Positions 2,949 through 35,461 of a DNA stretch of 35,461 nucleotides are shown in pieces. Position numbers and translations under genes: made by a program. The notes below the pieces were generated by a model. It did no database searches. It saw only the letters and a program-made list of their open reading frames with translations, and had not been told where the DNA came from. The stretch lies in IMG/VR virus record IMGVR_UViG_2778261527_000008; one strand, 5' to 3'. Position 1 is the first letter of the stretch. Every line of letters begins with the position of its first letter. This stretch comes from a virus. Lineage: Duplodnaviria > Heunggongvirae > Uroviricota > Caudoviricetes.

Positions 2949-2974
2949 GGGACTCTTCGGAGTCCCTTTTTTTT
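2949..2974 (+). terminator. rho-independent terminator (second, tandem)
   Basis: gggactc-ttcg-gagtccc followed by 8 T. Confidence 0.6.
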
Positions 2975-3215
2975 ATGCAACAATTCGAAGTGTAAGTTTC
3001 TTATGTTGTGTAGGTTTAGTTTCATTTCGCCACTCAGGGAATACATGATCCATCATAACCGCATTAGTCTCATCAATCAGCTTTAAGGACTTTCTCAACG
3101 CCTTATTATCAGCTTTAAGAGTTTTAATCTCTGATTCCATCGCTACCATTCTTTCTTTCATTTTGGTAATTTCTAACATCAGATTACCCAGAAATTCTTT
3201 GTTTTGATTCATCAT
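2973..3215 (-). CDS. hypothetical coiled-coil protein (80 aa)
   Basis: ORF with GAGGGG RBS; heptad-like KxL periodicity; no recognisable catalytic motif. Confidence 0.4.
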   Translation of the reverse strand: MMNQNKEFLGNLMLEITKMKERMVAMESEIKTLKADNKALRKSLKLIDETNAVMMDHVFPEWRNETKPTQHKKLTLRIVA

Positions 3216-3230
3216 AGATTCACCCCTCTA

Positions 3231-4232
3231 TTAAGCTGCGTATGCGTAGGCGCTGTAGTTGGTGTCGTAGATAGCGTCATGCAGTGCCATCTGTGCTTCG
3301 CGGATCTCGTCTTCGTTTACTTCAATCTCTTCTTGTTCTTCTTCGGTATCTTCCCAAGTGGTTTTGAATTTAGCCATAAAGTTATTGCGCAGGGATTCAA
3401 AGTTAGTAACAGGTGCGGATTTTTCTTCAACCGGAACTACTACCGGATCAGCTTCTTTCTGTTCTTCCTGTTCTACTTTTTCACCATTACCCCAGCGATA
3501 GTTAAGGAGTTCTTCCAGTTCTTCATCAATGGATTTTTCTTCAACTGCTTCAACTTCAACCGCTGCTACTTCGAAAGTGGTTTCCTGTGCTGCCAGTTCA
3601 GCTTTCAGAGATGCGTTTTCAGCTTCCAGTTCAGCAATGCGTGCTTTCAGTGCTTCAACTTCGGAAGATTCAACCACTGCAACTTCTTCTTTAACTTCTT
3701 CAACTACTACCGGAGCAACTTCTTTCTGTGCTTCTTTTTTGCAGAAGAAGGAGGAAGTAACCTGTAATGCGTGGTTGTAGAAGGAACCGCCTTTAGCGGT
3801 GTTAACAGTACCAGAAACATCCTTTACAGTGGATTCGGTAGCAACAGTACGGAAGCGTTTTGCGACTTCCTGGGTCTCTACGCCGTATTCGTTACGCTTG
3901 CTCTTGTGATGCATTACAGCACGGAAGCCGGAAGCAGTTTTAACAACAGCCAGATAGTAAGTTTCATCGGCTTTAACAGCACGAGCGAAGCAATAAACGG
4001 ATTCACCTTCTACCAGTGTAGGTTTAACGTGACGTTTGTCGAAACGGTTAGTGATCTGCCATTCAGCACCGTCTTTGATGCCAGCATTCTGACGCATTTC
4101 GGTCAGAGTCTTACCGGATACTACTTCAAAGGATTTGTCTTGTTTGCTTGCTTTACCTTCCATGACGGTAATGTTCAGTTTGCCGTTGGATTTAATAAAC
4201 AGGTTGAAGGTGATGCGCTTAGAATTTTTCAT
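3231..4232 (-). CDS. hypothetical protein: basic N-terminal domain, coiled coil, strongly acidic C-terminal tail
   Basis: 333-aa ORF with GGAG RBS; EVEALKARIAELEAENASLKAELAAQ coiled coil; Glu-rich tail; family not recognised. Confidence 0.5.
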   Translation of the reverse strand: MKNSKRITFNLFIKSNGKLNITVMEGKASKQDKSFEVVSGKTLTEMRQNAGIKDGAEWQITNRFDKRHVKPTLVEGESVYCFARAVKADETYYLAVVKTASGFRAVMHHKSKRNEYGVETQEVAKRFRTVATESTVKDVSGTVNTAKGGSFYNHALQVTSSFFCKKEAQKEVAPVVVEEVKEEVAVVESSEVEALKARIAELEAENASLKAELAAQETTFEVAAVEVEAVEEKSIDEELEELLNYRWGNGEKVEQEEQKEADPVVVPVEEKSAPVTNFESLRNNFMAKFKTTWEDTEEEQEEIEVNEDEIREAQMALHDAIYDTNYSAYAYAA

Positions 4233-4349: not shown

Positions 4350-4532
4350 TTACCAGACCTCGGCGGTAATCTTTACTTTAATGTCATACTTCTTTAAGAG
4401 TTTGTGGAAGGTTGATTGATCAATACCTTCACCTTTAAACCATTCACCCATCACTACATCAGGTGTCAGTTCAAAATAACGCTTTGCCATTTCTAAAACG
4501 ATTTCACGAGTGAACTTAACAGGTCGTGCCAT
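4350..4532 (-). CDS. small hypothetical protein (60 aa), possible DNA-binding regulator
   Basis: ATG preceded by AGGAGG RBS; first gene leftward of the noncoding control region. Confidence 0.4.
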   Translation of the reverse strand: MARPVKFTREIVLEMAKRYFELTPDVVMGEWFKGEGIDQSTFHKLLKKYDIKVKITAEVW

Positions 4533-4874
4533 CTTATATCCTCCTAAATCTGGAATAATGATTTCTTAAAAAAGAGCTTTTCGCTCTGAACAATTCTATT
4601 TATAAAATGTTTTTCGAAAAACCCTGTAAAACCACTGTATATCCGATCAGTGGGAGCACGAATTGCTAAAGAGAAGATTAATAATTAATCAATTCGTACA
4701 TTATTCAATCGAATAAGCACTGTATGTTTAGCCAGTTCTGTATGAATTAACAGTGAGTCAGGGGATTTTCAGAAGTGAACAATCATTTCATGCATGTATT
4801 TATACACGAAAAAATCTTGCGTATCATCAATATGGGGATTGTTTCGAAAATTTCAACCCCTACCAACGAGAAAA

Positions 4875-4903
4875 AGCATAAAATAATCCTTGACAGTTGT
4901 CAA
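4875..4903 (-). promoter_or_regulatory. candidate sigma70 promoter reading leftward, embedded in palindrome TTGACA-gt-TGTCAA
   Basis: on minus strand -35 TTGACA (4903..4898), 17-nt spacer, -10 TATGCT (4880..4875); the palindrome could also be an operator. Confidence 0.3.
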
Positions 4904-5100
4904 TACACTTGATCTAAGCGAGAGATGACTATCAAAATTTTTGTGTGAAAATGGCGGATAACGATTATCAACCTTTATAACCTATTATAGCACGGCGACC
5001 TTTTGATAATTCTTTTTAAATCATGCATTTACGGCGATTTTTGGTGATTTTCTGGTTAAATAATATACAAGAATTTTCTATCAAAATTTTTGATGAAAAA

Positions 5101-5220
5101 CCTACACTACAAACCTACGCTTTAAAGGGATTGGCCTACACTACACTAGCCAGTAAACCTACACTATAACACCCTCAAACCTACACTATGAAACCTACAC
5201 ACCTACACTAACCCTACACT
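5101..5220. repeat. iteron-like direct repeat array, core CCTACACT (6 perfect + 2 variant copies)
   Basis: copies at 5101, 5114(var), 5135, 5158, 5180, 5194(var), 5202, 5213; three successive spacings of 21-23 bp; often preceded by AAA. Confidence 0.6.
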
Positions 5221-5408
5221 TCAATCTCATAAGTGTATGATATTGAAAGACATTTCACCCCACAGACCATAGAATATAAAATTCGAACTAACGTTCTCCT
5301 TTTTGCTCGTTTTCTCTCACTACGTTCAAGAAAGATCTCGCAAAAAGAATACGGCGTAGCCGTGCGCGAAGCGCCCATCAACACCTTCTAAGACCTGCAA
5401 GCAGGATT

Positions 5409-5561
5409 CGAAAGGGATTGGATAGTTCGCTTCGCTCACGTTCACGCCTACGGCGTTCACTCGCTTTTGAAAGGATTTTCTTAGAAAGGGATTTAATACT
5501 AGTTACTAACTGATTCTAGTAAACGAACGAAGTGAGTAACAATCACTTTCTAGAAAGGTAT
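5409..5561. repeat. second direct-repeat family GAAAGG(G)ATT (4 copies)
   Basis: copies at 5409, 5468, 5483, 5552 inside a GC-richer structured segment. Confidence 0.4.
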
Positions 5562-5799
5562 TGGTTATCCCTTCGGGATTGCAACCTTCGGTTGCTAAAT
5601 TGCTTCCTGATTATTATTTCTCCAAAAGAAAGATTCTTATATTCTAAAGATACTTCTTCGTTTTGATGATGATTTAATCAAACCATGAAGGAGGGCTTTA
5701 GCCCGACTGAATACAATCACCTTTCATAATAACAAGAATTTTCTCTTTATAAATAATAGTGAACTTACTTGATTCACTTTCTTTTAGAGGATTTCCACT

Positions 5800-6267: not shown

Positions 6268-6302
6268 GTTAGGTCAACCCTTTGGCGTCTTGTCAAGGGG
6301 TA

Positions 6303-6331
6303 TTGACAAAAATTTCTGACTTTTTTATGAT
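6303..6331 (+). promoter_or_regulatory. candidate sigma70 promoter
   Basis: -35 TTGACA 6303-6308, 17-nt spacer, -10 TATGAT 6326-6331; upstream inverted TGTCAA at 6291-6296. Confidence 0.35.
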
Positions 6332-6389
6332 TGTCGCACTTGACAACTTTAAACCTATTTGACCTAGATTTGTAAATGGGGTGTTAATT

Positions 6390-7522: not shown

Positions 7523-7753
7523 TCAAATTCCTGTTGCTTCTACCATTTCACCATCAACCTGAACAAAGAATTTCAAATCAACTTTATGAAGGGATTTGTA
7601 TAGCTGGGCTATGGATAAGCCATGCTCATTTAATACCCGCTCTTTGTTCTCTTTACCTTTCGGTGCTTGATAGTACGCTTTTACAATCGCTGCCAGTTGT
7701 TCACGATTAAAACGGGCAGGGCGACCGCGAGTAGCTTTAGTAGTCATAGTCAT
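7523..7753 (-). CDS. small putative DNA-binding protein with AT-hook-like RGRP motif (76 aa from internal ATG)
   Basis: ORF track starts at a GTG; the ATG at 7753..7751 has a GGAG RBS; MTMTTKATRGRPARF... Confidence 0.4.
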   Translation of the reverse strand: MTMTTKATRGRPARFNREQLAAIVKAYYQAPKGKENKERVLNEHGLSIAQLYKSLHKVDLKFFVQVDGEMVEATGI

Positions 7754-7782: not shown

Positions 7783-8388
7783 TTATTTAGAGGACTTACA
7801 TTTTATCGGAAAAAGTTCTCCATCGTCAACCGACATAAAGAACTCTGCCTTAATCCCGTACTTCTTCAACCGTGAATAATATGTACCCCGACTAATATCA
7901 ACCTTGCGCAGCACTTCGAAGAACTCTTTAGGATTCCTGTAATAGTGGCTATATCGCACGTTAGCGAGTTCTACAAACAATTCCCTTGTATCACCATAGC
8001 CTTTCTTGAAAGCCACGTTACGATAGCGTGTAATGGCATGATTCAATCTCTTCTGTTTAAGCACTTCCCTGATCGGCTTCCACTGCAACCGATAGATAGG
8101 ACCGTCATCAATGCGATAATAACGCTTGATATCAAAATCAAACCAATCTCGGACTCTCCGAAACTCTGTATGTGATGTTCTATGCTTCTTAAAGAAGTTG
8201 TGAACGTCTCTATAGCCATTATCACGGTAAAATTCTATTAAAATCTCTTTCGCTTCCTCACGGCTAAACCCAGATGTTGTGTAATCGGTCTTTAAGTGCT
8301 TATGTTTTACTGGCAAACGATATTCATGATCGGTACAACAAGACAAGGCTAATTCTACTTCATCTCTTTGTTGCTGATTAATTAGCAT
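7783..8388 (-). CDS. hypothetical basic protein with C-terminal HTH-like segment
   Basis: 201-aa ORF; Arg/Lys/Tyr-rich; ISRGTYYSRLKKYGI resembles an HTH recognition helix. Confidence 0.45.
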   Translation of the reverse strand: MLINQQQRDEVELALSCCTDHEYRLPVKHKHLKTDYTTSGFSREEAKEILIEFYRDNGYRDVHNFFKKHRTSHTEFRRVRDWFDFDIKRYYRIDDGPIYRLQWKPIREVLKQKRLNHAITRYRNVAFKKGYGDTRELFVELANVRYSHYYRNPKEFFEVLRKVDISRGTYYSRLKKYGIKAEFFMSVDDGELFPIKCKSSK

Positions 8389-15005: not shown

Positions 15006-15411
15006 TAATATGCCGAGACTGAAAATCAAACGCGCCTTGCAAGATATTATCGAACAAGATTTAGGTCTGGCTTTAAACGTAGAACAAACTCAGCAAGGCT
15101 TTAGTGATGACGTGGTTTGTTGGATTACTGGCATGAATGAGACTTACACAAGGGTCCGTGGCGGTAATGCAATGCAAGCTGAATGCGTTATCGAAATGCA
15201 GTTATATTCTCAGATTCATGAAACGAAAATTCATGAGGGTATTTGCCAGATAATCCAGATTCAGCCAGATAACCCACGATTTAAAGATTTGGGCTTCTCT
15301 ATTTCAGATATCACTCCAGTAGCTTCTAATACCGATTATGACGATGATTCTAGTGATGGGGGTATCGTTGGGACACTTAGCCTTAAATTTTCTTATCTAG
15401 CGCGTTTTTAA
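14989..15411 (+). CDS. head-tail joining or tail completion protein (candidate)
   Basis: 140-aa ORF overlapping previous stop by 17 nt; synteny only. Confidence 0.35.
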   Translation: MLATVNNMPRLKIKRALQDIIEQDLGLALNVEQTQQGFSDDVVCWITGMNETYTRVRGGNAMQAECVIEMQLYSQIHETKIHEGICQIIQIQPDNPRFKDLGFSISDITPVASNTDYDDDSSDGGIVGTLSLKFSYLARF

Positions 15412-32018: not shown

Positions 32019-32276
32019 CTATGATTTATTTTCTTGTTCTATGAAAATCTTTCTCACCTCATCAGAATAAATGTCTAGTGATTCCTCATAACATTTTCTG
32101 TATTCATCGTAATTACTGGTGGTCTTTTGACATAGCAATTTCAATGTCTTATGTGCTCCATCAATGAAAGCATCTTCTCTATAGGTTAGCGGTCTACGCA
32201 TTTCTTGGTCTACGGTTGCCAATGCCAAGCAAGAATTCATAGATAAAATCAAACCTAAAATCTTAATCATCTTCAT
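32019..32276 (-). CDS. small secreted protein
   Basis: signal-peptide-like N-terminus MKMIKILGLILSMNSCLALA; 4 nt downstream of recombinase stop. Confidence 0.35.
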   Translation of the reverse strand: MKMIKILGLILSMNSCLALATVDQEMRRPLTYREDAFIDGAHKTLKLLCQKTTSNYDEYRKCYEESLDIYSDEVRKIFIEQENKS

Positions 32277-32280
32277 TAGC

Positions 32281-33960
32281 TTAAATTCCAAATTCTTGTA
32301 ATGGACCTGGTATTTCTTCTTCTGGTTTCCAGTTCTTATCTGTCAGCATGTCTAAACATGGATGCAGAACAAGCCCGTTACTCTCCAGAATCTGCCTATC
32401 ATTGATAGTCTTCAAATCAACGAAGATCCGGCCTTTCCTCGGTCCTCTTGAATTTTCTATTACAACTCTCTGGGTCTTGCCATCGATGTATTCCAGTACA
32501 AACAAGTTTTTGTACTTGTCAATCCTGCTACACCCGATCCGTTTTAGAGCTTGCTTAATCTTAAACCGGACCTTAATGCGATCCTCGTTGTAAACATCTT
32601 CTAAATCAAATTCTGCGAGCTTCTCCCAGCCTTGAGAGTCAACAGAATACATTTCCTCTTCTGCCATCTTAAGTTGATTGTAGAGTGTTTCACGCTCGCT
32701 ATTGAGGGTAGTAATCTGATCGGCTAGCTCCTTCGTTGCTCCTGTCATAGCAGAAAGGGTAATCAGGTTATCAATCTTGCGTGATATTTCATCAATCTGT
32801 ACTTTCAAAGCCGGAACCGGATTAGCCTTATCTTCAGCAATCCAGATTTTATCAGCCAGCAATTGCAATACAGCTTTCTCTAATTGGTCGCCGCGAAAAC
32901 TCCAGTTTGTATGCACACATTCAATACGACTAGAGCGCATTGCATCGCATGAATAACGATATTGGTTAGGCCGTCTGTTTGTTCCTTTCACCTTAACCAT
33001 AGCGGAACCGCAATGTTCACATTTCAATAGACCAACACCACTAAGCAAGGGAATAGGTTTAGCTTCTTCTTTGTCTCCAAAGTTACATGCTCTAACACCA
33101 ATGCTTTTCTTAAGGTGATAAAACTCAGCGTCATCTAGCACACGAGGATAATAATCCTTTAACTCATACTTAACGCCATCTACAGAGATTTCCTTGATAC
33201 CAATCAAAGCGCGGGTATGGAACAACCTTTCAATCATTGCCCGTGACCAGTTTGAATGCCTCTTGTGACTTGCGGCTGGTGGTGGTGTGTATGTCGCGTT
33301 AAGGTGATCCAGTATCTCGGCGGTTGACCGTCCATTCCTGCGTAATTCCACAACTTCCTGAACAATAGGGAAGAAGACCGGATGAGGAAGCACATAACCA
33401 GATGTGGTATCAGTCCACCACATATTCTTTCCAATTTCCTCGATTGCAACAGCCGGATTTTGTGGATTTTCTTGATGAGCTTTAATCTTAATCAGTGCGC
33501 TTGAGTTAGTACGATTGCGCTTAGTCTGGCTTTCCTCATTACCACGGATGAATAAAAGGATGGAGAACATCAGGTCCATCGGGTTAGCGGTAACAGTATC
33601 AAGCGAGTAGATCTTGTTATCCATGCCAGTAACAATGGTTATCCCCCTACGGATGATTGAAAGGAATAACTCCTGCGCACTGACAATATCGGCACGGGAT
33701 AAACGGTCCAAGTTTTCGATGAATAGCCAGCTACCAACAGGAACGGATCTACCTATTGCATCAAGGAAACGAGATAGCGCCCCTGTTTTGGAGTTAGCAC
33801 CCTTAAACGCAGATACACCCAGATCCTGATAATCATTTACCAGTTCAAGGTCATACTTTACCGCAATCTCTCTAGCCATCCTGATTTGTCGTTCATAACT
33901 CGAACCATCATTCTGACGCATAGACGAGAAGCGAATATACGAATACAGTTTAGTTTTCAT
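32281..33960 (-). CDS. large serine recombinase (integrase/resolvase family)
   Basis: 559 aa from ATG at 33960; N-terminal resolvase catalytic motif YIRFSS..Q; Cys-rich zinc ribbon CEHCG...C..C; coiled-coil segment. Confidence 0.8.
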   Translation of the reverse strand: MKTKLYSYIRFSSMRQNDGSSYERQIRMAREIAVKYDLELVNDYQDLGVSAFKGANSKTGALSRFLDAIGRSVPVGSWLFIENLDRLSRADIVSAQELFLSIIRRGITIVTGMDNKIYSLDTVTANPMDLMFSILLFIRGNEESQTKRNRTNSSALIKIKAHQENPQNPAVAIEEIGKNMWWTDTTSGYVLPHPVFFPIVQEVVELRRNGRSTAEILDHLNATYTPPPAASHKRHSNWSRAMIERLFHTRALIGIKEISVDGVKYELKDYYPRVLDDAEFYHLKKSIGVRACNFGDKEEAKPIPLLSGVGLLKCEHCGSAMVKVKGTNRRPNQYRYSCDAMRSSRIECVHTNWSFRGDQLEKAVLQLLADKIWIAEDKANPVPALKVQIDEISRKIDNLITLSAMTGATKELADQITTLNSERETLYNQLKMAEEEMYSVDSQGWEKLAEFDLEDVYNEDRIKVRFKIKQALKRIGCSRIDKYKNLFVLEYIDGKTQRVVIENSRGPRKGRIFVDLKTINDRQILESNGLVLHPCLDMLTDKNWKPEEEIPGPLQEFGI

Positions 33961-34023
33961 ACCATTTCCAAACAAAAACGCCCCTACCGCGTATTATAAC
34001 GATAGGGGCCAGGTGATTAAAGA

Positions 34024-34443
34024 TTAAAGAATTTCACGGCAGCTAATCAGGGAATAAGACGTATCACCTTTTTTAACATCAAATATAGGTGCGCCATCTA
34101 CAGAATGCAGATATTTGATGTAGGATTTACCATCTTCGGAACCATAATATTCTTCTTTCTCGTTCTTATCTTCTTTCAGTTTTGGGCTTTTGATTGTTTT
34201 ATCAAATACCGGATCGTTGAAAGCAAATTGACTATTATCATCATTCACTCGAACCTTTACACCGATAAAACCACGGTATTTGCCAGACGGCGCATGATAA
34301 TAACGGTCGCCATCACTCAGGTAGCGTGTATCATCTCCTTTATATTCGAAGTAGGAATTGCACACATAATAGGTATAGGTATTAGCATTCGCAGCACCAA
34401 CCAAACCCAGAGCAAGAACAACACCAGCGATAATCTTTTTCAT
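34024..34443 (-). CDS. secreted/periplasmic hypothetical protein
   Basis: 139 aa; signal peptide MKKIIAGVVLALGLVGAANA; two Cys. Confidence 0.4.
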   Translation of the reverse strand: MKKIIAGVVLALGLVGAANANTYTYYVCNSYFEYKGDDTRYLSDGDRYYHAPSGKYRGFIGVKVRVNDDNSQFAFNDPVFDKTIKSPKLKEDKNEKEEYYGSEDGKSYIKYLHSVDGAPIFDVKKGDTSYSLISCREIL

Positions 34444-34488
34444 AGTAGAATTTCCTCTTGTTGTTTGAATTACGATATATTTATATCA

Positions 34489-34611
34489 TTAAAAGTTAAT
34501 GCTAATAATCAGACCAAACACAACCGCACCAATCAAATCAATCCAGTTAATACACAGCGAATATTCTTTCTTGAATGTCTTAGATGAAATGCCATCATGA
34601 AATTGTTTCAT
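34489..34611 (-). CDS. small hydrophobic peptide (40 aa), type I toxin-like or membrane modulator candidate
   Basis: ATG at 34611..34609 with GGGGTGAG RBS; MKQFHDGISSKTFKKEYSLCINWIDLIGAVVFGLIISINF. Confidence 0.2.
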   Translation of the reverse strand: MKQFHDGISSKTFKKEYSLCINWIDLIGAVVFGLIISINF

Positions 34612-34751
34612 TGCTCACCCCATACTAACGACAATATAAGAAAGACTAATCATGGTTGTGAGACTACCTCCCACGAATGAGATAAAAGCTAACATGTTTG
34701 ATTCTCCATTTAAAAAGCGGTGGGAATTACACCCACCAAATTAGAAATTAA

Positions 34752-35189
34752 TTAAGCGCGAACGATGGTCAGAGTATCCAGCAAACCTTTTTCGTATAAT
34801 TCGAAACACGTTTTATATTGCTCAATCTTCCAACCGTAGCGGGTGATCTTATTCAGTAGAATAATCACGGTATTCTCATCTAGGTATTGTCCTTGCTTAC
34901 CAATTACATATGACTCGCGGGATAGTCTCAGCTTACGGAAACCTTTAACACCTAATTCCTTAGCCACCGCTTTAACCTCGTTAATCTCACCTTCTGCGGC
35001 TACATATTCAGCGTCGATAATCTCAGTTGATGATCTCAGTGCTACCAGAACTAAGGCCATTGCTTCTTCTTCGGTACGAGCAACACCAGCTTTCTCGAAA
35101 GTCATCTCACCAAATTTACGAGTCATAATATTGAACATTGTCTGTATTCCGTTTAAATCGGCGGGAATAGTACCCGCCAAATTAGACAT
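34752..35189 (-). CDS. hypothetical protein
   Basis: 145-aa ORF; start overlaps upstream gene stop. Confidence 0.4.
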   Translation of the reverse strand: MSNLAGTIPADLNGIQTMFNIMTRKFGEMTFEKAGVARTEEEAMALVLVALRSSTEIIDAEYVAAEGEINEVKAVAKELGVKGFRKLRLSRESYVIGKQGQYLDENTVIILLNKITRYGWKIEQYKTCFELYEKGLLDTLTIVRA

Positions 35190-35461
35190 TACTTCTTGCT
35201 GATAAACTCTTTAGCGATAAAGTTGATTACTTCTTTCAGCTTCTTGTCTGTATCGATGCACGCTGGTAATTCTTCTTTAATATCCTGCGGCAGATACACA
35301 TTCCCTTTAAAGTGGAGGAAACCATCATTACCAATCATGTAGGAGAACATCCATTCACAATCGTTATCCGCTTCCCAGAACGCCACGGTCTCATCGTCAA
35401 TCAAGGTAATGTCCATGTTGCGACGTGCTGCGTAGTTGATGATTGCTTTACCGATGTTCAT
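35189..35461 (-). CDS. hypothetical protein (start coincides with window edge; may be N-terminally incomplete)
   Basis: 90-aa ORF whose ATG is the last three bases of the window. Confidence 0.35.
   Translation of the reverse strand: MNIGKAIINYAARRNMDITLIDDETVAFWEADNDCEWMFSYMIGNDGFLHFKGNVYLPQDIKEELPACIDTDKKLKEVINFIAKEFISKK

Follow-up and report, generated by a model that had tools for sequence, protein, structure and literature searches.

We analysed a stretch of 35,461 nucleotides (nt; IMG/VR record IMGVR_UViG_2778261527_000008), hereafter the window, which corresponds to a prophage of about 35 kb lying in hicB of Escherichia coli, according to the annotation of the surrounding region. A 1.27-kb non-coding stretch (4533–5799) separates a leftward gene set, encoding proteins of 60, 333 and 80 amino acids (aa), from a rightward set encoding a 155-aa protein and then a 48-aa and a Rha-family protein. 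Within this stretch lies the subject of the analysis, a palindrome, TTGACA-gt-TGTCAA, which an earlier note on the window had read as part of a leftward promoter and as a possible operator. The promoter, here called P_left, proves to be well supported by its conservation and the operator plausible. The elements of the palindrome and promoter are:

4890–4895, plus strand: left arm of the palindrome, TTGACA, in the P_left spacer; candidate operator half-site
4896–4897: centre of the palindrome, GT
4898–4903, minus strand: right arm, TGTCAA, which is the predicted -35 hexamer (TTGACA, 6/6 to consensus) of P_left
4875–4880, minus strand: predicted -10 hexamer of P_left, TATGCT; TATACT, TATGAT or TATAAT in relatives

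The palindrome and the leftward promoter

Positions 4875–4903 read AGCATAAAATAATCCTTGACAGTTGTCAA. Reading of the sequence and a string search confirm a perfect 6-2-6 palindrome that places a -35 hexamer on both strands, as well as TATGCT at 17 base pairs (bp) from the minus-strand TTGACA. Perfect 6-2-6 palindromes are not unusual as such in the window (7 observed, about 10 expected); TTGACAnnTGTCAA specifically appeared in 3 of 300 Markov simulations (~1%). Nor is TTGACA over-represented, with 13 copies on both strands against the ~22–24 expected (~11.1 per strand, or ~12.2 plus 12.0). Five of the 13 copies fall within 4890–4903 and 6291–6345, and the five TTGAC found in 90 bp (6273–6359) were reached in 2 of 300 simulations. 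A promoter scan gave P_left (4903..4875, minus strand; 10/12) and a rightward promoter, P_right (6303–6331; 11/12), as the two best intergenic matches.

Relatives were collected at two distances. The close set, ten E. coli loci plus IMG/VR contigs, yielded 35 distinct rightward promoters and, for the block that borders the iterons (described below) on their left, 25 distinct versions. In the distant search, E. coli relatives of the left block were all at least 87% identical, which leaves too little divergence for RNA covariation tests. Searching with the 60-aa protein brought up homologues in Salmonella enterica and Edwardsiella tarda, on contigs with the same gene order, and these loci, being more distant, are the informative ones. 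Two scans of species-representative genomes (one per species), one using an alignment of the 155-aa protein and the other the large terminase, were both empty.

The promoter module, read in the direction of transcription, was extracted from 42 E. coli and Salmonella loci, giving 36 distinct versions. The -35 and -10 hexamers are 17 bp apart in all 42. Entropies were taken as mean bits per position over the 36 distinct modules, which are related sequences and not independent counts: 0.14 for the -35 and 0.27 for the -10, two values biased by an extraction whose regular expression demanded -35-like and -10-like hexamers, 1.19 for the 35 nt upstream and 1.05 for the 25 nt downstream. The pattern matched in every E. 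coli and Salmonella locus of that scan and the flanks are randomised, so the assignment of P_left as a leftward sigma-70 promoter, as the earlier note had proposed, is well supported. Its score rises from 10/12 in the window to 11/12 in the E. coli majority sequence and 12/12 in Salmonella relatives, with TTGACA-17-TATAAT, the complete consensus, in several Salmonella lineages. TATACT prevails among the E. coli relatives; the TATGCT of the window is a weaker minority form (4/6 to consensus, with A at position 2 and T at position 6). P_left points toward the conserved leftward operon, and transcription would start at about 4868. In Salmonella lineages of type A, one or two iteron copies stand right after the -10, which is what would be expected of an autoregulated rep promoter.

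The presence of a perfect -35 hexamer on both strands could also be taken to mean two back-to-back divergent promoters, each arm serving as its own -35, and an origin can be activated by transcription running toward it, lambda being an example. However, the place where a rightward -10 would have to lie, 16–18 bp beyond the plus-strand TTGACA, is taken by TCTAAG or CCTAAG in the E. coli loci and by ATAAGG, TTCTCA, TATGCA or TAGATA in those of Salmonella. These hexamers do not match TAnnnT and are not conserved. For want of a -10, rightward firing from the plus-strand arm was rejected, and we give divergent promoters next to no credence.

The second arm of the palindrome and related sites

The arm that lies in the spacer, nGTCAA in the direction of transcription, has an entropy of 0.22, as low as that of the -35 and not affected by the bias of the extraction. 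The value for the two central bases is 1.36. These two and the sixth base of the arm vary freely, TTGAC does not, and the TTGAC arm is kept in all lineages but L183/184. Conserved arms around a free centre give the site the look of a dyad operator, and TTGAC-N4-GTCAA is plausible as one. The dyad overlaps the core promoter, one arm being the -35 and the other lying in the spacer, with its centre about 28 bp upstream of the predicted start, a position from which a bound dimer would shut out RNA polymerase. The possible operator of the earlier note is thus plausible: the conserved arm, the free centre and the lack of a rightward -10 speak for it, whereas the loss of the arm in L183/184 and the failure to find a regulator do not.

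Alternatively, the plus-strand arm may have no function of its own, the whole core promoter being selected for strength or inherited as a block. The remaining nine spacer nucleotides are also fairly conserved (0.39 bit), lineage L183/184 retains a consensus promoter with a destroyed arm (TTGCAT), and there is no regulator among the Pfam and PHROG matches. This explanation has difficulty with the two centre bases and the sixth arm base, which vary while TTGAC does not, and with the other spacer bases, which differ between E. coli and Salmonella (GGATTATTT versus GAACTTTTT) where the arm is the same. The spacer of a sigma-70 promoter is normally only weakly constrained in sequence, which also counts against it. 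We regard a promoter with an idle second arm as a serious possibility, though not a probable one.

The candidate operator has the format of several 14-bp dyads, namely the 434 operator (ACAA-N6-TTGT), the PrfA box (TTAACAnnTGTTAA), the FNR box and the 7-2-7 sites of NarL/LuxR type. All agree in length, in dyad symmetry and in having conserved outer bases around a free centre, but the half-site sequence and the position relative to the start differ. With the FNR box, TTGAT-N4-ATCAA, the element has its geometry in common (5-4-5, 14 bp), as well as four of the five bases of the half-site. As the element is also conserved in both E. coli and Salmonella hosts, it might be read by a host protein of the CRP/FNR family or by another host dimer that recognizes 5-4-5 dyads. 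Against this, the half-site is TTGAC, not TTGAT (FNR) or TGTGA (CRP), and the centre lies near -28, not at -41.5, as for class II activation, or at -61.5. A host site is extremely unlikely.

The earlier note had also proposed that one regulator acts at P_left and at 6291–6308, in front of P_right. The features around P_right are:

6303–6331, plus strand: P_right, TTGACA-17-TATGAT; conserved in E. coli and Salmonella relatives
6272–6296, minus strand: TTGACA-N13-TTGACC; its TGTCAA (6291–6296) lies in a hairpin upstream of the P_right -35
6340–6353, plus strand: TTGACAACTTTAAA, directly after the P_right -10; one perfect and one degenerate arm; candidate second operator

TGTCAA at 6291–6296, TTGACA at 6303–6308 and P_right itself are all present as described, and in all lineages the order is (T/A)GTCAA, 6–8 bp, TTGACA (the -35), 17–18 bp, TATGAT, TATCAT or TAACAT, 7–8 bp, TTGACA(A). 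The case for the same regulator at 6291–6308 is weak: the upstream GTCAA is directed away from the P_right -35, so that the arms are reversed (GTCAA...TTGAC) compared with 4890–4903; the gap is 6–8 bp, even among close relatives; and TGTCAA belongs to a hairpin, in which it forms the loop of CCCCC-TGTCAA-GGGGG or falls in part within a CCCCTTG...CAAGGGG stem. From its sequence, the pair does not look like the same rigid dyad. The TTGACA(A) that follows the P_right -10 by 7–8 nt in all lineages, the perfect arm invariant and the surroundings different, may be the better candidate for a partner site.

In E. coli, a longer arrangement may be considered, in which a regulator binds a direct-repeat composite, TTGACA-N13-TTGAYCTA, as the functional unit. 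Its copies and the second half at P_left are:

4890–4916, plus strand: composite copy straddling the P_left -35
6296–6270, minus strand: composite copy just upstream of the P_right -35
6340–6366: composite copy starting at +2 of P_right
4909–4916, plus strand: TTGATCTA (TTGACCTA in most E. coli relatives), second half of the composite; not conserved in Salmonella

The three copies are exact, with 19 bp from one TTGAC start to the next, where 0.64 would be expected allowing up to two mismatches, and all adjoin the two strongest early promoters. The C repressor of phage P2 offers a precedent, with direct-repeat operators about two helical turns apart. However, three matches also occurred in 2 of 100 shuffles at the two-mismatch setting, the P_left copy reads TTGATC in 11 of the 25 E. 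coli variants, and the second half, TTGACCTA, is missing at all three places in Salmonella, which keeps both promoters and the palindrome. Since the second half is missing in Salmonella, we treat the composite repeat as an elaboration specific to the E. coli lineage; that it is the functional unit there is unlikely. When IMG/VR was scanned with the composite motif, most hits were single chance matches, and those loci with several matches that could be recognised by contig name were of the same prophage family. Promoters of alternative sigma factors were also considered for TTGACA-N13-TTGACCTA; none fitted, as judged by eye against their consensus sequences.

Other short elements recur in the window. 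An orphan CTTGACAA at 1454–1461, with no -10, lies upstream of the small-terminase gene, and no E. coli or Salmonella lineage lacks it; some 100 nt beyond it, at 1562–1579, is a conserved GC-rich dyad, GTCGC-tac-GCGAC, possibly a cos site. TATAAATA occurs at 4598–4605 (minus strand) and 5749–5756 (plus strand), upstream of the 60-aa and 155-aa genes, with no matching -35. It is kept at both places in E. coli relatives and, for the most part, ahead of the 60-aa gene in Salmonella as well.

Predicted leader, probable replication operon and candidate regulator

Beyond what the earlier note described, a conserved leader of about 300 nt with three LexA-box matches and a terminator-like hairpin lies between P_left and the first gene of the operon (4532..4350):

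4565–4868, minus strand: predicted P_left leader, ~300 nt from the predicted start to the terminator; highly conserved, non-coding
4633–4652: LexA-box match 1, CACTGTATATCCGATCAGTG; 12.8 bits; CTGT-N8-ACAG in relatives, up to 21.4 bits
4718–4737 and 4736–4755: LexA-box matches 2 and 3, overlapping by 2 bp; 18.9 and 14.7 bits; up to 22.9 bits in relatives
4565–4587, minus strand: intrinsic-terminator-like hairpin, AGAGC-GAAAA-GCUCU plus U-run, just upstream of the ribosome-binding site of the 60-aa gene

Alignments of relatives show frame-breaking indels in the leader and no conserved open reading frame (ORF). Folding is more pronounced on the minus strand (z -4.6) than on the plus strand (z -1.9), and Rfam returned no match at gathering or permissive thresholds. 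The hairpin and T-run are kept with different stems, GAGCG/CGCUC in Salmonella and GCCGUC/GACGGC in Edwardsiella, with folding energies from -6.7 (the window) to -11.2 kcal/mol. Because the hairpin persists through different stem sequences, a putative terminator between promoter and operon is a constant feature of the family.

LexA boxes were scored with a position weight matrix built from 26 E. coli boxes (training range 12.7–24.5 bits). The three matches are the best three in the whole window, where the 95th percentile of the maximum in shuffled sequence was 15.6. In all long-leader lineages of E. coli and Salmonella, their distances to the ATG of the 60-aa gene are 100–101, 185–186 and 203–204 nt, and no other match of at least 12 bits was found in the 12-kb loci of relatives. 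Lineage L176/177, which has no long leader, instead carries a single perfect LexA box on the opposite side of the promoter; no LexA boxes occur in L175 or L183/184. In the window the boxes lie ~115–235 nt downstream of the predicted P_left start, and only 8/12 promoter matches overlap them, so placed that LexA, if bound there, may serve as a roadblock or work through a weak promoter inside the leader.

A strong promoter, a conserved spacer element and a terminator ahead of the genes recall the lambda PR'–6S RNA–tR' arrangement. A Q-type antiterminator might load at the spacer element, with P_left firing constitutively and giving a short transcript to the terminator until a phage protein, bound between the -35 and the -10, alters RNA polymerase to allow read-through; a hairpin-plus-U terminator does precede the first gene in every lineage, even where the leader is only ~45 nt (L176/177). 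However, inspection of the modules revealed no conserved -10-like pause element (TAnnnT) in +1 to +25 across lineages, no Q-family protein or Q homologue was detected among the prophage proteins, the operon is early or replication-related and not late as in lambda, and the terminator of the window is weak at -6.7 kcal/mol. Antitermination of this kind is very unlikely.

The genes that P_left would serve, and the presumptive origin on its other side, are:

4350–4532, minus strand: 60-aa protein, first operon gene; predicted three-helix, helix-turn-helix-like fold; candidate regulator
3231–4232, minus strand: 333-aa protein; N-terminal ~150 aa covary with iteron type
2973–3215, minus strand: 80-aa protein, last leftward gene; coiled-coil-like
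5097–5224, plus strand: iteron array of ACCTACACTA repeats, partly in 22-bp phase; probable replication origin
5001–5096: AT-rich stretch (22.9% GC) beside the iterons

Copies of ACCTACACTA at 5157, 5179 and 5201 are 22 bp apart, and further copies are present. In E. coli and Salmonella relatives these iterons are replaced by at least four other repeat types, and N-terminal types A, B, C, E and F of the 333-aa protein each pair with their own repeat type. Since the N terminus changes with the repeats, the 333-aa protein is most likely the repeat-binding protein and replication initiator. Iterons and protein would then form a swappable origin/initiator-like module, swapped at least five times by the same evidence. 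The palindrome stays unchanged when the iteron type changes, which argues that it is not the site of the 333-aa protein, and an iteron-like Rep site at the palindrome was dropped for this want of covariation. The 333-aa protein has no Pfam, PHROG or PDB sequence match and no homology to known initiators; PDB sequence searches with the 201-aa and 155-aa proteins were also empty. A role for it as small terminase was dropped, since a separate 184-aa gene matches the small-terminase PHROG; the Edwardsiella homologue of that protein has weak Nu1-family matches.

Some smaller observations concern the same region. The 333-aa protein ends in AYAYA, and in one E. coli relative (homologue at L005 378–1433) this end has grown into a long (AY)n run. 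At 4957–4972, in the AT-rich part beside the iterons, GGATAACGATTATCAA resembles a 7-1-7 Fur box and TTATCAACC a weak DnaA box. At 4992–5000, CGGCGACCT equals nine bases of the lambda cohesive end, GGGCGGCGACCT. This last likeness was dropped: it is variable among relatives, is replaced in L021 and is probably due to chance.

The 60-aa protein is a candidate only for the regulator of P_left. Its AlphaFold2 model is a three-helix bundle (mean predicted local distance difference test score 73.6), and the nearest structural matches are DNA-binding helix-turn-helix domains (NtrC4, Fis and DeoR), with E values of at least 1, which are not significant. Separately, the 60-, 74- and 201-aa proteins (4350–4532, 7523–7747 and 7783–8388, all minus strand) have in common a motif with the look of a small helix-turn-helix, RP.(K/R)F.RE ... 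G(I/L)..(S/A)..(F/Y)(H/K)K.L.K..(I/L)K. None of the three has a Pfam or PHROG family, and the 74- and 201-aa genes adjoin the terminase gene.

Several findings weigh against an operator at P_left. The arm is lost in L183/184, and the conservation of the nine other spacer bases allows the arm to be a core-promoter constraint. The Edwardsiella relative has no TTGACA anywhere in this region. Two sequence types of the 60-aa protein go with the same palindrome, so protein and site do not covary; its structural matches fall short of significance, and among early-gene regulators the Rha-family protein is the only one with a Pfam or PHROG match. The window has one other match to the palindrome, TTGACAACTTTAAA at +2 of P_right, with two mismatches, and about two such matches are expected per window by chance; one of its arms alone fits well. 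The promoter and its start are themselves called from consensus and conservation, in modules that are related to one another and were selected on their hexamers.

Under the reading that we prefer, RNA polymerase would start near 4868 and proceed leftward, first making the leader of ~300 nt, which would end at the terminator (4587–4565); read-through would enter the operon for the 60-, 333- and 80-aa proteins. A dimeric DNA-binding protein on the dyad would cover the -35 and so hold a P_left of consensus strength off in the lysogen. The same protein may block the rightward unit through the TTGACA and degenerate arm that come right after the P_right -10. Were the 60-aa protein this regulator, the operon would be self-regulated. 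The reading in its entirety, with P_left, leader, terminator and operon, the dyad as operator and perhaps a second operator at P_right, seems to us about evenly balanced between right and wrong. It could be extended to a lysogeny kept by two locks on P_left, one a small phage protein that reads the TTGAC dyad in competition with region 4 of sigma-70, the other host LexA at the three leader boxes, as a roadblock or through a hidden promoter. The extension would also embrace the orphan TTGACA(A) sites at the start of the Rha operon and upstream of the small-terminase gene, and would have the SOS response directly free the replication operon. Taken jointly, these additional proposals are unlikely.

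Prophage setting and known control systems

The E. coli chromosome CE0007a is 99.6% identical to the window. Parts of the window are present in 57 of 5,426 complete E. coli genomes, and the family extends to Salmonella and Edwardsiella. Comparison with known phage DNA, in near and distant searches with the region, found no relative, just an 80-nt RB49-like stretch; a plasmid search matched the host flank and nothing else, and the literature on hicB-integrated prophages yielded nothing relevant. The prophage encodes a large serine recombinase as integrase (32281–33975), a lambda-type large terminase, portal, capsid, tape-measure and tail-fibre proteins and an M15 endolysin. No deposited phage has a large terminase more than 43% identical to this one. 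No repressor, Cro or replication protein is recognisable among the prophage proteins with Pfam and PHROG, and nearly all early genes of the family have no known relatives.

The window starts inside hicB (1–351), and its matches to prophage-free chromosomes end at ~333, which marks the left attachment site; in CE0007a the other hicB fragment directly follows the last prophage gene, at the right end of the window. From this arrangement, leftward transcription from ~1400 in the excised circle would cross the attachment site into 35461..32019, integrase included.

The RB49-like stretch is intergenic (5605–5683) and ~82% identical over its 80 nt to an element that recurs between genes of T4-type phages of the RB49 kind (Krischvirus); in RB49 that element adjoins a stem-loop and lies between ORF164c and ORF165c. 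The tail-fibre gene (17116–19794) is 75–87% identical at the DNA level to Krischvirus gp37. Both likenesses suggest that a temperate prophage of siphovirus-like type and virulent T4-like phages have exchanged sequence. Just before the RB49-like stretch, at 5568–5596, are two neighbouring small hairpins with CUUCGG loops (ATCCCTTCGGGAT and GCAACCTTCGGTTGC), kept in relatives. A 91-nt tRNA-Glu(UUC) called by ARAGORN at 15176–15266 (minus strand) runs antisense to the ORF of a structural gene; both its length and its placement point to a false positive.

Comparison with studied systems places P_left among known types of control. Like lambda PL and PR, it would head an early operon beside an origin, with -35 and -10 hexamers close to consensus, a spacer of 17 bp and an overlapping dyad-symmetric site. 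It differs in having a single dyad instead of three tandem operators and no CI or Cro homologue; its half-site is the -35 hexamer itself, and downstream of it come a long leader, with LexA boxes, and a terminator. With repA of P1, repE of F, repA of pSC101 and the O/ori region of lambda, it shares its place beside iterons and an AT-rich stretch, as the promoter of the operon for the iteron-specific protein; the iteron copies after the -10 in Salmonella type-A relatives are a further likeness. It differs from them in that the palindrome is not iteron-like and the 333-aa protein has no detectable homology to known initiators. LexA boxes in the control region recall p95/tum of coliphage 186, the Gifsy antirepressors and Bacillus phage GIL01, the prophage here being one with no recognisable CI-type repressor, but the boxes stand downstream of the predicted start and not over the promoter. 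No protein homology to the lambda, 434, 186, Gifsy or GIL01 systems compared was detectable.

By analogy with lambda and 434, P_left would work in the classical phage manner, as an early promoter on which a dyad operator is superimposed, and its region would combine features of an autoregulated rep promoter beside an iteron origin with LexA-linked prophage control. The palindrome and promoter are an ordinary kind of phage control element; the surrounding control region is uncharacterised and the more interesting part. The value of the finding comes from its setting: a widespread and unstudied family, early genes with no relatives, a swapped origin module and a conserved trio of putative LexA boxes. 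P_left would be the main early promoter of this temperate phage family, and the positions of the promoter and its likely operator provide a starting point for finding the missing repressor and for checking whether induction runs via LexA.

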